Virus record (IMG/VR): IMGVR_UViG_2681813261_000006
Direction: 5' to 3' (one strand)
Origin: a virus
Lineage: Duplodnaviria; Heunggongvirae; Uroviricota; Caudoviricetes
Length of the DNA stretch: 9,829 nucleotides
Both the position numbers and the translations under genes were made by a program. The notes beneath the pieces were generated by a model. The model was not told the DNA's origin. It did no database searches and saw nothing but the letters and a program-made list of their open reading frames with translations. Positions 437-9,002 of this stretch are shown here, one piece after another (position 1 is the stretch's first letter; every line of letters begins with the position of its first letter).

Positions 437-524
437 TGCAAAAGTTGTCCTAATGGAACTTGGATCACAATAATTCCAAAAGCATCAAGTACTGGTACTA
501 TGATCCAGTTATAGAGAATGATAA

Positions 525-806
525 NNNNNNNNNNNNNNNNNNNNNNNNNNNNNNNNNNNNNNNNNNNNNNNNNNNNNNNNNNNNNNNNNNNNNNNNNNNN
601 NNNNNNNNNNNNNNNNNNNNNNNNNNNNNNNNNNNNNNNNNNNNNNNNNNNNNNNNNNNNNNNNNNNNNNNNNNNNNNNNNNNNNNNNNNNNNNNNNNNN
701 NNNNNNNNNNNNNNNNNNNNNNNNNNNNNNNNNNNNNNNNNNNNNNNNNNNNNNNNNNNNNNNNNNNNNNNNNNNNNNNNNNNNNNNNNNNNNNNNNNNN
801 NNNNNN
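525..806. other. Run of 282 N (assembly gap or masked sequence)
   Basis: Directly visible; no sequence information. Confidence 0.99.
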
Positions 807-826
807 AAACTCAATCAATATACTAA

Positions 827-1138
827 TCATTCAATAATCCCCACGGCATATACCCAAAAATGTTTACCCTTCACAAAGAGCTTTTTACTCTCAATTAGAA
901 ATACAGGCATCTTTTCACCCTGTAATTCCCATTCAAGTACTTCACCAACTTTGAAATCTTTCTTCTTCTCATAAATAACGTTCATATAGCTATCAATCTG
1001 ATAATTACTTTTCTTAACGACCTTTTGAAATTTCTTATCAAGAAAACATTTGTTAATTGGCATACTATTACCATCTGGTGTCATGCCATTTAGCTTAATC
1101 TTGCTTATTAAATCACCATAATGTTGCTCAAAATTCAT
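827..1138 (-). CDS. Hypothetical protein, 103 aa
   Basis: ORF with ATG at 1138-1136 overlapping the upstream gene's TGA stop by 4 nt (ATGA), which implies translational coupling. Stop TGA at 829-827, 20 nt from the N-run. No motif recognised. Confidence 0.5.
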   Translation of the reverse strand: MNFEQHYGDLISKIKLNGMTPDGNSMPINKCFLDKKFQKVVKKSNYQIDSYMNVIYEKKKDFKVGEVLEWELQGEKMPVFLIESKKLFVKGKHFWVYAVGIIE

Positions 1139-1713
1139 TGTCTACTTATCCTGAATGTTCCCTGAATACCGCTCATAATTACCCTTACACCATCATTGGC
1201 TTCCTTATAGAAGTCATAGATAAGGCGACGTTGTTTCTTCTCACGTAAGCCAATTACACGTTTGGTTTTCTTCTTGGTATCTTTCTTTGCGGTATCAATT
1301 AATCGTTCTTTACCATTCTTACCCTTCACTACCTTATATCGTTCACTTAAAAGATTCTTTTTCAGTCCTGAAATGTTGCCCTGCTTAGTTAATCTTGTAG
1401 ATGAAGTAGGTATAAACTTATCAATTGCCTTTGGCTGTACCAGTACTTGATAAAGGTACTTAGCCTGAATATCTTTAACCATGATGGTCGATGTAACTGA
1501 ATTTCTCCCAACCTTTCTATAGAAGAAAAGGATGGAACGTTGAGTAAAGCCCACTGCCCCACGGTCAACGCTATTATTCAAATCACCCTGCATTCTTTGG
1601 GATAGTAGCTTGGAACGTTTAATTATTTCATTCTGGAATTGATTATTTAATCTAACTCCCTGCGTTTGTATATAGTTCCTTATACTACCAATCCCATTTA
1701 TTCCACTTGCCAT
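1135..1713 (-). CDS. Hypothetical basic protein, 192 aa, Lys/Arg-rich C-terminal half
   Basis: ATG at 1713-1711 with GAGGT Shine-Dalgarno 6 nt upstream; the upstream gene's TGA stop sits inside that SD (TGAGGT). C-terminal half is very basic (KKDTKKKTKRVIGLREKKQRR), suggesting nucleic-acid binding. No family recognised. Confidence 0.6.
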   Translation of the reverse strand: MASGINGIGSIRNYIQTQGVRLNNQFQNEIIKRSKLLSQRMQGDLNNSVDRGAVGFTQRSILFFYRKVGRNSVTSTIMVKDIQAKYLYQVLVQPKAIDKFIPTSSTRLTKQGNISGLKKNLLSERYKVVKGKNGKERLIDTAKKDTKKKTKRVIGLREKKQRRLIYDFYKEANDGVRVIMSGIQGTFRISRQ

Positions 1714-7100: not shown

Positions 7101-7425
7101 AATTTGGTACGTTGTACCAGGCTACTATGCTTCCGGTTAGGATGAAGGAACCGCCTGATACACCATTTTTATGTGGTAGTTCTCCACCGTATATAACGGG
7201 TAATCCAGTAGTTGGTGAAGTACTTCTACTTAGTGAGTCTGCTACATCACCGTATCCAGAAACCCCGATTTGACCTAACATAGAACTTGCAACTAATGAC
7301 AAAGATCCGGCTGCTGCACCCCAACCTATTGCTGCTAATGCTGTACCTCCTGAAAAGTACACAGCAGCCGCGACGACAACTGCCGTAATTATGGCTCCAA
7401 AAAAGCCCCCTAAACTCTTACCCAT
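4123..7425 (-). CDS. Host specificity protein J-like tail tip / central tail fibre protein, 1100 aa
   Basis: ATG at 7425 overlaps the K-like gene by 8 nt; AGGA about 9 nt upstream. Contains a fibronectin-III-like segment ([73 protein letters not shown]) comparable to the FN3 repeats of lambda J, a Ser/Thr/Gln-rich coiled-coil stretch, and a C-terminal region resembling the lambda J C-terminal domain (DUF1983-type). Size and position after M/L/K-like genes fit. Confidence 0.85.
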
Positions 7426-7822
7426 CTCTCTGTTTCCTTACTCTGTAATATGTTCCCTCTGTTGGTTTTGGTTGAAGTTCGAAACCATCATGATCAGCAT
7501 TTACTCCAAGTACCCGACCAGATGCCACTACTGCCATAATTAATGGGTTGTCAGGATCTAACCAGATATCACCGTCTATAGTGGCTTGTACTGGCTTACA
7601 GTACGCTTCAACAATTTCCCCTGTATGGTTCCATCCTTCCTTGTTTAAACCTGCTATACCTTCTTTAATGCTCGAATACTGGCGATTAGTTAACTGTGTA
7701 GTACCATTAATTAAATCAATAAGGCGTAGTACTATAATGTTGCAATCGTTATCACCATACTTATATGGGTTATCAATTGAGTACTGAATAATACTCATTA
7801 CTTCATTATGTAGATTTTTCAT
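7418..7822 (-). CDS. Tail assembly protein, K-like NlpC/P60 domain only, 134 aa
   Basis: ATG at 7822-7820 overlaps the L-like stop (TAATG). Candidate catalytic Cys in [12 protein letters not shown] and His in [11 protein letters not shown], in the order of the NlpC/P60 half of lambda gpK. No N-terminal MPN/JAMM domain is present. Confidence 0.55.
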
Positions 7823-8445
7823 TACTTGTATTTCCAGTTCTGATTTTGATTAACTTGACCTAACAGACTAAAGTACTCATCATTTCTATAGTAAGATTGA
7901 TATACTGAGTTGGCGGCAATTAATGCAGGTTGTCTGTCTAATTTCTTATAGACAGAATTCACATATATAGTCATTTCGTTTTGCTTCTGATTTGGATCAG
8001 TTACTGCCTGTACATAGTCAATAAACCCCGTAAACATGAGCATTGAATCAATTACAGTACTATCATATGGATTGAGAATTACTAACTTGATATTCATCTG
8101 TGCATCTTTCAAGAAACCACCAAGGGCAAGAGCACGAACCGAGGCGTTTACATTGCTAATTTTAAAATTGATAGCATCATTAGACATGCCCTTTTGTTCA
8201 GAATATGAAGGTAATGAACCACTGATAATGTCGGGGAAACTTATGTACTTATAACCATCCAGATCTATATCAATTAGTGAATCCGTCCAGTGAAAACCAT
8301 TAGTACCTTTTGGTAGTACATCAAAACAAGTAACATTAACGCCTAAGCTCATAATTTCCATTAGTGTTAATCTTGTCTTGGTTGTACCTCTGACTAACTT
8401 CCAGTACTTAAGAAGATTAGCATTAGTATATATACCTGAGTCCAT
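7822..8445 (-). CDS. Minor tail protein, L-like, 207 aa
   Basis: ATG at 8445-8443 overlaps the M-like stop (TAATG). Segment order loosely parallels lambda gpL (LMEIMSLGVNVTCFDV against LWEIDLTEVGGERYFFCN), but the C-terminal Cys cluster of lambda L is absent. Assignment rests mainly on position between M-like and K-like genes. Confidence 0.5.
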   Translation of the reverse strand: MDSGIYTNANLLKYWKLVRGTTKTRLTLMEIMSLGVNVTCFDVLPKGTNGFHWTDSLIDIDLDGYKYISFPDIISGSLPSYSEQKGMSNDAINFKISNVNASVRALALGGFLKDAQMNIKLVILNPYDSTVIDSMLMFTGFIDYVQAVTDPNQKQNEMTIYVNSVYKKLDRQPALIAANSVYQSYYRNDEYFSLLGQVNQNQNWKYK

Positions 8446-9002
8446 TAGATGATATTCTCCGTTGCTTTCAATGTAATATTCATGATGTTCCCAATAGGCA
8501 ATGAATAATCATTGTCTGGATCTAATACAGCCTCGATCATGAGATTGTTATATTTGAGTGCTTCACTTGCCTGTACTGTATTTTGTAGAGCAGGGAAAAT
8601 AGTAATTGAAGTACTGGTACGTTCTACGATTCGATATAGCTTATTGTGATTGGAAAACTGTACCCACTCACCCACAGCTAATGTGTTAGTACTGATAGGT
8701 ACAACCATATTACCCGGTTTAGTGAGAGCAGTAGCGGTTACTGCACCAGTCTGTTTACCGTAATATGTACCTGCAAGCCCCAATGACATAGTGAAAGGTT
8801 TGCCCTGTGCATATTGAGCTAAAAAGCTATTCACTTCATTTAGTGATGCAGGATTAAAATTAAGGGTGAACTGAATTTGATAGTATTGAATTCCAGTACT
8901 TCTCATGATACGTTGACCTGTCCATGTTTGATTAGAATAGATCGGTTCAGTACTTTTAATTTGAAAGTTCGTTACTTTTATTTGATTTGAAAAGGATGCC
9001 AT
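8445..9002 (-). CDS. Minor tail protein, M-like, 185 aa
   Basis: ATG at 9002-9000 with GAGGT (plus 9009-9013) 6 nt upstream. Segment YQIQFTLNFNPASLNEVNSFLAQYAQGKPFTM parallels lambda gpM YSVTLSVPREEATVLESFLEEHGGWKSFLW. First gene of the tail-tip operon in this window. Confidence 0.55.
   Translation of the reverse strand: MASFSNQIKVTNFQIKSTEPIYSNQTWTGQRIMRSTGIQYYQIQFTLNFNPASLNEVNSFLAQYAQGKPFTMSLGLAGTYYGKQTGAVTATALTKPGNMVVPISTNTLAVGEWVQFSNHNKLYRIVERTSTSITIFPALQNTVQASEALKYNNLMIEAVLDPDNDYSLPIGNIMNITLKATENII

Follow-up and report, generated by a model that had tools for sequence, protein, structure and literature searches.

Several systems are known in which a short word is scattered through a genome in large numbers. 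Chi (GCTGGTGG), KOPS and uptake sequences consist of many dispersed copies of small individual effect, which are kept dense against codon usage and are read by a machine that processes DNA, and the stoperators of temperate mycobacteriophages such as L5 comprise about 30 asymmetric, orientation-dependent sites of 13 bp that lie mostly between genes. For the palindrome HIP1 (GCGATCGC) of cyanobacteria, selection and not biased repair has been put forward as the cause of its maintenance; the genomes that contain it also encode orphan methyltransferases, and its function is debated (PMC5861425, PMC4390886). For phages, the avoidance of restriction sites has been surveyed (Rusinov et al., 2018; PMC6286503). 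Here, we describe the palindrome AGTACT in a stretch of 9829 bases from the IMG/VR virus record IMGVR_UViG_2681813261_000006 (Caudoviricetes; the whole stretch is referred to as the window), which represents the lysis and tail module of a temperate, siphovirus-like Enterobacteriaceae prophage of ~35 kb. An initial annotation, made by eye, had remarked on a surplus of this hexamer. In the reading that we favor, although tentatively, the surplus is part of a genome-wide and actively maintained DNA word, namely the half-site AGTAC/GTACT on the core GTAC.

Among the described systems, HIP1 offers the closest likeness: a short palindrome is strongly over-represented throughout the genome, inside genes in all frames as well as between genes, and its sites are conserved beyond background between genomes, whether inside open reading frames (ORFs) or in the stretches separating them. 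The word differs from HIP1, which belongs to a cellular chromosome, in being carried by a phage, in its unit of 4–6 bp with half-site character and independent flanks, and in an enrichment of 3–10-fold as compared to 15–300-fold; moreover, it co-exists with an extreme purging of other palindromes and is common to unrelated phages of one host order. HIP1-type periodicity extends over 10–90 kb; the genome considered here measures only ~35 kb, and its short-range spacing is random. Chi, KOPS and uptake sequences are asymmetric and orientation-biased words of 8–12 nt, whereas AGTAC/GTACT has a palindromic core and is strand-symmetric (94 AGTAC vs. 89 GTACT, without strand or orientation bias). With the L5 stoperators it shares a temperate phage as carrier and many copies of one short site across the genome, but here ~380 GTAC are present per genome, mostly genic and in both orientations, and virulent jumbo phages carry the word as well. 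In comparison to restriction-site avoidance, AGTACT is enriched about ten-fold although the same genomes purge GCGC, CTAG, TGCA, GGTACC and CGTACG, and other coliphages (RB49, T5, rV5) deplete AGTACT, which is the opposite sign to that of the prophage family. In the literature searched, subscription papers excepted, we found no earlier mention that GTAC or AGTACT is over-represented in phages.

The window has a GC content of 38.3% and contains 652 N in three assembly gaps (146–436, 525–806 and 9207–9285), leaving 9177 resolved bases. Exact counting yielded 36 AGTACT sites at positions 488 to 8949, which bears out the manual tally of about 35 in ~9.1 kb, the GC content of 38–40% judged by eye, the four sites reported in the 450-bp lysozyme gene and the absence of sites from 9003–9829; merely the end coordinate given earlier, 8946, has to be corrected, as the last site (8949–8954) falls outside of it. 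Dinucleotide-preserving shuffles (n = 200) gave 3.10 ± 1.86 sites with a maximum of 9 and not one of them reached 36, in line with the earlier estimate of about three sites and a roughly ten-fold excess. In Markov simulations, orders 0 and 1 returned 3.1 sites, order 2 returned 8.8, and order 3, the background that had been proposed as a check, returned 21.0 ± 5.0; only an order-4 model, into which the pentamer frequency is already built, reaches 33.8.

These counts could in principle be a by-product of composition, i.e., of codon usage, of tail proteins rich in Ser, Thr, Tyr and Val, of AT pressure or of the avoidance of other palindromes. The amino-acid sequence indeed about doubles the expectation, from 4.2 ± 2.0 sites in codon-order shuffles to 8.2 ± 2.6 (maximum 18) in synonymous-codon shuffles within genes, and the initial annotation had rightly expected such a codon-pair contribution without a full explanation. 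It accounts, however, for about 8 of the 34 sites within coding sequence (CDS), so that the surplus stands against the very codon-preserving shuffles that had been named as its refutation, and codon or dipeptide bias was rejected on both shuffles. Synonymous shuffles in which the purged palindromes were forbidden (CTAG, GCGC, GGTACC, CGTACG, GGWCC and others) still gave 8.0 ± 2.4 sites, and palindrome avoidance was thus likewise rejected as the source, even though GTAC enrichment correlates negatively with CTAG retention (rho = –0.55 over 100 family loci) and ACTAGT and AGTAGT are raised where AGTACT is banned. As further described below, non-coding DNA is equally enriched, codon choice runs against AT pressure, the excess extends across early, head, tail and lysis genes, and T4, T5 and FelixO1 show no enrichment at similar GC content. 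A composition by-product is therefore very improbable.

What is enriched is not primarily the hexamer. The core GTAC occurs 109 times in the window vs. 32 expected, and AGTAC/GTACT 122 times vs. 19.8 expected. A precedes GTAC in 56% of cases, which predicts 109 × 0.56² = 34 hexamers; as the hexamer count matches the product of the flank preferences, the two flanks are independent. This independent-flank expectation fits the hexamer in most of the ~45 relatives tabulated (e.g., 84 vs. 79.8), and GTAC with neither flank is merely ~1.5-fold enriched according to arithmetic on the flank matrix of the window. Over ~350 AGTACT sites in three genomes, C stands at position –1 at 1.6–2.6 times background and G at 0.3–0.7 times, while the flanks beyond –1 hold no further information out to ±30 bp; a longer motif is thereby ruled out, and the best form of the word is C-AGTACT-G. 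In lineages from which AGTACT itself has been purged, such as the relative L010, the pentamer excess is retained, which identifies the half-site as the selected unit. The suggestion that the enrichment marks a recognition motif consequently holds as far as it concerns a word that acts at the DNA level, but the unit is the half-site AGTAC/GTACT and not the palindromic hexamer. AGTACT would then arise wherever two such half-sites overlap.

From end to end of the element, the word recurs with roughly one GTAC in every 90 bp. A 35.1-kb composite of a 95%-identical relative contains 380 GTAC (3.1-fold), 429 AGTAC/GTACT (5.8-fold) and 123 AGTACT (10.8-fold), with a GTAC excess that is alike in early, head, tail and lysis genes, and across family loci of at least 10 kb GTAC is enriched in 100 of 100 (1.8–3.25-fold; AGTAC median 4.6-fold). 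Even a relative with only 45% identity in TerL shows GTAC at 2.3-fold and zero GCGC. In the composite, GTAC density is 10.4 per kb in the ~3 kb outside ORFs and 10.9 per kb inside. All three codon phases are used by the 34 sites within CDS of the window (17, 10 and 7 in phases 0, 1 and 2), as noted before. AGTACT fills 54–60% of the protein-permitted positions in each phase, and for GTAC the filled shares are 71, 77 and 25% in the three phases. AGT-ACT is one of 24 possible spellings of Ser-Thr and is nevertheless used in 54 of 90 pairs (57% of 95 in a second count). The word overrides both codon usage and AT pressure, with TAC chosen over TAT and CTN over TTA, and it has altered the dipeptide content of the proteins: Ser-Thr is over-represented about 1.3–1.8-fold and Thr-Ser is not (1.0-fold), and the same holds for Val-Leu (1.34-fold) vs. 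Leu-Val (1.02-fold). Spacing is random (coefficient of variation ~1.05) without a helical or dimer pattern; only peaks at multiples of three and one isolated 13-bp peak were seen, and regular or helical spacing and a fixed dimer arrangement were rejected on these grounds.

The carrier belongs to a family whose relatives include prophages of Scandinavium lactucae and of Pluralibacter gergoviae as well as a decayed copy in E. coli 14EC007; these three are the family members with named hosts, and we infer that IMG/VR contigs with identifiers of the 25xx–29xx type derive from isolate genomes. Three IMG/VR contigs match a 53-base stretch of the window exactly; among them, L001 aligns with the window at three probes and is free of gaps. 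Encoded in the window are a distal tail protein (Dit), a further tail protein, a J-like central fiber, tail-tip proteins of small size, an enzyme resembling T4 lysozyme and a small GIY-YIG-like protein. In the composite, a serine recombinase, small regulators, HNH and P-loop proteins, a homolog of the BisI-family methyl-directed nucleases (Eco15I, E = 1e-33) and morons are followed by TerS, a lambda-GpA-like TerL, portal, protease-capsid, fiber, tail and lysis genes and a truncated putative N6-adenine methyltransferase; no polymerase was found among its genes. Recombinase, terminase, portal, capsid, tail and lysis genes together with junctions in three host genomes characterize the element as a temperate lambda-like siphovirus prophage. 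Only packaging, structural and lysis genes are general across the family, the early region being mosaic. A close cultured phage was not found, the best match being part of the DCP80 record at 30–35% protein identity.

The word is confined to the phage. Enrichment ends at the prophage/host junctions in Scandinavium, Pluralibacter and E. coli, and insertion sequence (IS) copies, a 30%-GC accessory gene and morons are devoid of it. In the window, the motif-rich core with the lysis and tail module (437..9002) holds 108 of the 109 GTAC and all 36 AGTACT. Its left limit is set by a motif-poor accessory ORF (1..145, minus strand) that is HNH/SAVED-HNH effector-like and cut by an assembly gap; the complete ORF in L001 (1–795) contains one GTAC vs. 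9.4 expected (P = 0.0008). On the right, a motif-poor ORF of 190 amino acids (aa; 9004..9739, plus strand) separates the Dit gene from the tape-measure gene, is encoded on the strand opposite to theirs and has one GTAC vs. 6.8 expected (P = 0.009). The AGTACT-free stretch 9003–9829 is thus explained by a moron on the opposite strand, in the place of which relatives carry a different gene.

The same signature was encountered in phages that are unrelated to this family. A scan of IMG/VR searched for three AGTACT sites within ~70 bp, and among the matches listed, many of which are local repeats, the Klebsiella phage RaK2, the Cronobacter phage GAP32 and a relative of the Erwinia phage Kaldavass show locus-wide enrichment at loci with essentially no protein similarity to the prophage family. 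Observed-to-expected ratios for GTAC/AGTAC/AGTACT, calculated from sampled segments (~120–170 kb of the ~350-kb jumbo genomes being compared), are 2.76/5.03/9.9 in RaK2, 1.90/3.51/7.9 in GAP32, 2.25/4.16/10.0 in 121Q and 2.25/4.14/8.6 in XbC2. The 5′-flank fractions agree as well (A 0.54–0.55 and C 0.06–0.08 in RaK2, GAP32 and 121Q; A 0.56 and C 0.08 in the prophage), RaK2 and GAP32 have most of the prophage’s top hexamers in common, and in these jumbo phages 46–60% of Ser-Thr pairs are spelled AGT-ACT vs. ~15% expected from codon usage. In control phages this share is 0–7%, and their ratios show no comparable excess: T5, 0.98/0.79/0.17; FelixO1, 1.0/0.85/0.46; T4, 0.63/0.49/0.69; rV5, 0.45/0.58/0.27; RB49, 0.78/0.80/0; and the closest cultured relative DCP80, 1.26/0.91/0.57. 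The Pseudomonas phage PA5oct, of the same broad jumbo clade, gave 0.71/0.52/0. In the compared segments, the jumbo phages and the prophage family have only lysozyme (30–36% identity) and an HNH protein in common. The word is not only phage-confined and old but also convergent between two unrelated phage groups of Enterobacterales. The papers describing the jumbo phages report 32% GC as compared to 57% GC in the host, two putative methyltransferases in RaK2, the DNA of which resists methylation-sensitive enzymes, and two to three in CBB and GAP32; the motif is not mentioned in them (PMC3622015, PMC5259590). Locally AGTACT-rich stretches in other viral contigs from the scan (L221, L194, L240, L196 and L208) have 38–64% GC and GCGC that is not purged, and L240 has an apparent repeated longer palindrome, GGAAGTACTTCC.

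Codon alignments of 9–15 genes from relatives at 62–95% nucleotide identity demonstrate how the sites behave over time. At 71–75% identity, GTAC ranks third to fourth in conservation among ~220 tetramers (54–59% kept vs. a mean of 31–36%), and of 47 AGTACT sites 23 are held in common with the relative L007 (49% vs. 0.71⁶ = 13% expected). Since the totals are equal (47 and 47) despite the losses, lost sites have been replaced elsewhere. At positions 7219, 8610 and 8895, the orthologs in L007 or L015 use spellings of the TCN-ACG type where the window has AGT-ACT, and a switch between the two serine codon families is impossible by a single synonymous step. The word is, in summary, preserved at orthologous sites, re-created elsewhere after loss and missing from recently acquired genes, and it is maintained by selection, or by an equivalent conversion-like drive, that acts on double-stranded DNA.

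Such a neutral molecular drive would consist in a context-specific mutation or mismatch-repair bias, similar to very-short-patch (VSP) repair, which converts near-cognates to GTAC and leaves the word functionless. Distorted oligomer frequencies are a known effect of VSP repair in enterobacteria, and in the genomes considered here CCAG/CTGG is 1.46-fold enriched, CTAG is depleted, the one-step neighbor GGAC/GTCC is down to 0.39–0.6, and sites turn over with constant totals. Nevertheless, we consider a drive of this kind quite unlikely. No transition neighbor is depleted (ATAC/GTAT 0.95–1.1; GCAC/GTGC 0.85–0.92), which excludes a VSP-type repair sink, and the GGAC depletion largely reflects a general rarity of GAC/GTC (0.53) plus the GGWCC purge. 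Between 95%-identical genomes GTAC sites disappear at about one third of the rate of an average tetramer (5 vs. 17%), site creation needed the multi-nucleotide Ser codon-family switches just described, host DNA adjoining the prophage is not enriched, and the two enriched groups differ in replication machinery, with T4-like replisome genes in the jumbo phages (PMC5259590) and no polymerase in the composite. A conversion of GCGC to GTAC by double deamination was also rejected by reasoning, since 380 GTAC are far more than GCGC could plausibly have supplied and GTGC/GCAC, the intermediates, show no enrichment.

Superimposed on the word is ordinary restriction avoidance, by which particular palindromes are lost lineage by lineage. 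The window and its close relatives have neither CTAG nor GCGC, in agreement with the earlier view that phages as a rule deplete palindromes and that AGTACT is the exception; among the 100 family loci GCGC is absent from 90, CTAG from 25 and TGCA from 10. This avoidance extends to hexamers that contain the core: GGTACC occurs in three or four family loci but is missing from most (0 vs. 4–11 expected), many loci lack CGTACG, and a purge of AGTACT itself is seen in L031 (0 vs. 19.8 expected) and L036/L010 (2 vs. 25.7 expected, with 46 of 46 aligned sites gone). In these AGTACT-purged lineages AGTAC is still 2–3.5-fold enriched, and related words are raised (GTAGT 2.4-fold, ACTAGT 2.0-fold, AGTAGT 2.2–2.9-fold and GGTACT 7.1-fold). 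GCGC is also zero in the unrelated jumbo phages RaK2, GAP32, 121Q and XbC2; the general GCGC purge may reflect a phage-borne agent, e.g., a nuclease acting on GC-rich host DNA, beyond host restriction. AGTACT, a site of the ScaI/Eco255I type, is avoided by several coliphages, with none in 50 kb of RB49 (L128, 50001–100000) and one each in 15–20 kb of T5 and rV5; the RB49 count makes AGTACT-specific restriction appear a real pressure on coliphages. In some family members (L031, L053), CAGCAG/CTGCTG, the EcoP15I recognition sequence, is enriched 4–5-fold.

The purging of GTAC-containing hexamers also bears on a role in modification, as proposed in the initial annotation. In this case, an orphan methyltransferase of phage or host would act on GTAC or AGTACT, and dense methylation would serve protection, self-marking or DNA organization. 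This would be in line with HIP1 as the closest analog, which has been linked to orphan methyltransferases (PMC4390886), with the methyltransferases and the enzyme-resistant DNA of the jumbo phages, and with a putative N6-adenine methyltransferase (NPPF motif; phrog_3820, E = 6.5e-106) that is encoded at the right end of the element in six loci, including the E. coli remnant. However, the lineage-wise loss of GGTACC, CGTACG and, in L031 and L036, AGTACT implies that GTAC is exposed to restriction and not shielded, which renders a protective GTAC modification unlikely. As a driver of the word, the methyltransferase of the family was rejected: L007 reaches its contig end without the gene and is still AGTACT-rich; RB49 has a 56%-identical homolog, yet shows GTAC at 0.78-fold and lacks AGTACT in 50 kb; and the matches are weak for a substrate assignment (M.TaqI, E = 0.07; Erm-like, E = 7e-4). 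Methylation alone, moreover, gives no reason why more sites should be better. Taken together, a methylation target appears unlikely, although among the alternatives it is the one with most in its favor.

A further option, also raised in the initial annotation, is that the word is the recognition site of a phage-encoded enzyme for packaging, nicking, priming or recombination. Its confinement to the phage and its presence across the clade would suit such an enzyme, and HNH and GIY-YIG nucleases are present. On the other hand, the lambda-GpA-like TerL indicates packaging of the cos type and thus site-specific, and neither strand counts nor spacing, for which a test of periodicity had been recommended, show any bias or regularity. 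A palindrome nicked on both strands would leave the genome broken, and the unrelated jumbo phages have the same word with other terminases and replisomes. Over 30 family loci no universal early, replication or primase gene was found (P-loop protein in 7, HNH in 13, recombinase in 8). On this sequence evidence, strand-specific nick sites of the T5 or phiKMV type and primase sites were rejected. The GIY-YIG-like protein (36 of 48 family loci) was discarded as common agent because its homologs lie in T4-like phages and not in the RaK2 group, and so was the BisI-family nuclease (Eco15I/NhoI homolog), which occurs in 3 of 30 loci only and has an unrelated specificity. A packaging, nicking or priming role therefore fits poorly, and a dedicated phage enzyme is improbable.

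Among host proteins, SlmA deserves consideration. This nucleoid-occlusion protein occurs in Enterobacterales, and by offering AGTACT-centered sites a phage might block host cell division. The consensus SlmA-binding sequence (SBS), GTGAGTACTCAC, contains AGTACT, and binding requires G1, T2, A4, G5 and a purine at position 3 (PMC3020112). The likeness to the word ends with the AGTACT core and an enterobacterial factor, since there is no enrichment of the flanks that SlmA needs: AGTACT is preceded preferentially by C and rarely by G, GTR-extended sites are at background (7 vs. 7.3, 5 vs. 6.6 and 4 vs. 6.6), and full SBS-like sites number 0–1 per 35–50 kb. SlmA was rejected on these grounds, and we regard it as the least probable of all explanations considered.

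For the maintained half-site word as our favored reading, the question is consequently what might read it. The reader would probably be no protein specific to the prophage family, but more likely a factor that this family and RaK2-type jumbo phages both meet in enterobacterial cells; candidates are a factor of the host that binds or processes AT-rich phage DNA free of modification or, alternatively, a small common mobile gene. The benefit could be cumulative and grow with the number of sites, as for Chi or HIP1. In this extended form, AGTAC/GTACT (C-AGTACT-G) would be a functional word, the phage counterpart of HIP1 or Chi, that evolved by convergence in two or more unrelated groups of Enterobacterales phages with AT-rich, unmodified DNA and is read by an enterobacterial factor of DNA binding, DNA processing or defense, a proposal that is possible but which we hold with somewhat less assurance than the maintained word as such. 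Several points weigh against these views. The step to a host factor proceeds by elimination; the word is absent from many other phages that infect these hosts, so that such a factor would matter to some phages only; and SlmA as the only known enterobacterial protein with an AGTACT-centered site does not fit. A small common gene could have been missed in the partial jumbo genomes compared (~120–170 of ~350 kb), and XbC2 was reported from Xanthomonas, though it is of the GAP32 genus. Furthermore, non-coding DNA of GAP32 is little enriched (3.3 per kb), the ~3-kb non-coding class of the composite may include unannotated small genes, and selection and a biased-conversion drive are inseparable from sequence alone.

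The individual AGTACT sites of the window were compared with orthologous positions in five relatives (L013, L014, L007, L015 and L010). The first (488..493) lies between two assembly gaps with no gene assigned. It is followed by one site in a 103-aa ORF (936..941, phase 2, E-V-L; kept in L014, L007 and L015) and one in a 192-aa ORF (1442..1447, phase 2, Q-V-L; kept in L013 only). The GIY-YIG-like ORF has two sites in phase 1, 1731..1736 (E-Y-L; L013 only) and 1914..1919 (Q-Y-S; L013 and L007). Among the four lysozyme sites, 2258..2263 (phase 1, K-Y-F) is kept in L013, L014 and L007 and 2625..2630 (phase 2, A-V-L) in L013 and L014, while 2308..2313 and 2353..2358 (both phase 0, S-T) are lineage-specific and found in L013 only. 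In the 218-aa ORF, three sites in phase 0 (S-T) are located at 3113..3118 (kept in L013, L014, L007 and L015), 3239..3244 (L013 and L014; TCTAGT in L007, TCAAGT in L015) and 3614..3619 (L013, L014 and L007; AGTACA in L010), and one in phase 1 at 3463..3468 (Q-Y-W; four of five relatives). Site 4033..4038 is non-coding, between a 98-aa ORF and the J-like gene.

The J-like fiber gene carries 13 sites. Seven are Ser-Thr pairs in phase 0: 4279..4284 (AGTAAT in L007, L015 and L010), 4645..4650 (L013 only), 4783..4788 (window lineage only; AGTACA in L013 and L007), 4840..4845 and 4906..4911 (each kept in L013 and L007), 6898..6903 (four of five; ACTACT in L010) and 7219..7224 (L013 and L014; TCGACA, i.e., Ser-Thr from the other Ser family, in L015). 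Phase 1 is represented by 4611..4616 (Q-Y-S; L013, L014 and L015), 5484..5489 (E-Y-F; L013 and L007) and 7086..7091 (Q-Y-L; AGTACC in L007 and L010), and phase 2 by 5591..5596 (V-V-L; L013, L014 and L007, with GGTACT in L015 and TGTACT in L010), 6059..6064 (K-V-L; four of five) and 7007..7012 (P-V-L; L007 only). A 134-aa ORF adds 7728..7733 (phase 2, I-V-L; L013, L007 and L015) and 7780..7785 (phase 1, Q-Y-S; L013 and L015). In the gene of the 207-aa tail protein, sites are found at 7872..7877 (phase 1, E-Y-F; L013 and L014, with AATACT in the other relatives), 8056..8061 (phase 0, S-T; four of five, AGTACA in L010) and 8403..8408 (phase 1, K-Y-W; four of five). All four sites of the distal tail protein gene are Ser-Thr pairs in phase 0, namely 8610..8615 (TCAACG, Ser-Thr from the other Ser family, in L015), 8688..8693 (kept in L013, L014 and L015), 8895..8900 (TCAACG in L007 and TCTACG in L015, a Ser family switch from TCN to AGT) and 8949..8954 (four of five; AGTACC in L010). 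Measured by the core, the larger genes contain 9–16 GTAC per kb vs. ~3.5 expected, among them Dit (16.1), the J-like fiber (15.7) and lysozyme (15.6).

Apart from the word itself, several features of the window and its relatives were observed. The gap 9207–9285 is flanked by an identical sequence of ~80 bases (9124–9206 and 9286–9368), and in the gap-free L001 this stretch is 163 bases shorter and the 190-aa ORF continuous, which fits a collapse of the gap plus one repeat copy; gap and duplication therefore look like scaffolding artifacts. The two left-hand gaps are in total 167 bases longer than the real sequence. Between the distal-tail-protein and tape-measure genes, the window encodes the 190-aa protein and relatives a 208-aa membrane protein (L007 3969–4595; composite 23031–23657), and with its low GC, lack of family matches, near absence of GTAC and accessory gene on the opposite strand this slot looks like a moron hotspot. 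The left-edge ORF is intact in L001 (1–795, minus strand) and encodes 264 aa, the N-terminal part of which matches SAVED/CBASS HNH effectors (PADLOC SAVED-HNH, E = 4e-23); its product is probably a prophage-borne defense or abortive-infection protein. The Eco15I/NhoI homolog is encoded in the early region of a 95%-identical relative (L062 5377–6183; 268 aa; PDB 8q5m, E = 1e-33; PADLOC mREase_II, E = 3e-63) and has an extra C-terminal domain of ~100 residues. The GIY-YIG-like protein (window 1723–2157, minus strand; 144 aa) shows the GIY...YIG, Arg, Glu and Asn motifs at the size of a bare nuclease domain, without a DNA-binding domain.

The decayed relative in E. coli 14EC007 (L016 14600–30240; NZ_CP024131 2151828–2167459) is situated between mipA and yeaG, has lost its head genes and is interrupted by IS3-family elements; the prophage is still fully GTAC-enriched, the IS copies are not. 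The DCP80 record (PQ671644.1; L127, 1–50000) looks chimeric, with a siphovirus-like structural module of ~26 kb followed by T4-like genes and rIIA occurring twice, and GATC is absent from it (50 kb) as well as from FelixO1 (20 kb sampled). Chi (GCTGGTGG) is 10–30-fold over expectation and co-oriented (composite 2:0, RaK2 3:0, GAP32 0:2, T5 3:0), and the partial Chi words CTGGT and GCTGG are enriched 2–3-fold.

Phage genomics treats short palindromes as liabilities, and here phages that purge palindromes more strictly than most (neither GCGC nor CTAG) hold a ten-fold surplus of one of them, at a cost large enough for the recoding of serine and a shift in protein composition. The signature could be used as a marker for host prediction or lineage, and it is of relevance for the recoding or synthesis of therapeutic Klebsiella and E. 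coli jumbo phages; the question is directly testable in the cultured phages RaK2, GAP32 and 121Q. The occurrence of the same word in two unrelated phage groups of one host order points to an unrecognized interaction between phage DNA and the enterobacterial cell, for which a defense, counter-defense, DNA-organizing or repair factor would be a candidate. If AGTAC/GTACT is indeed a functional word, the density of its sites would help to decide the success of an infection.

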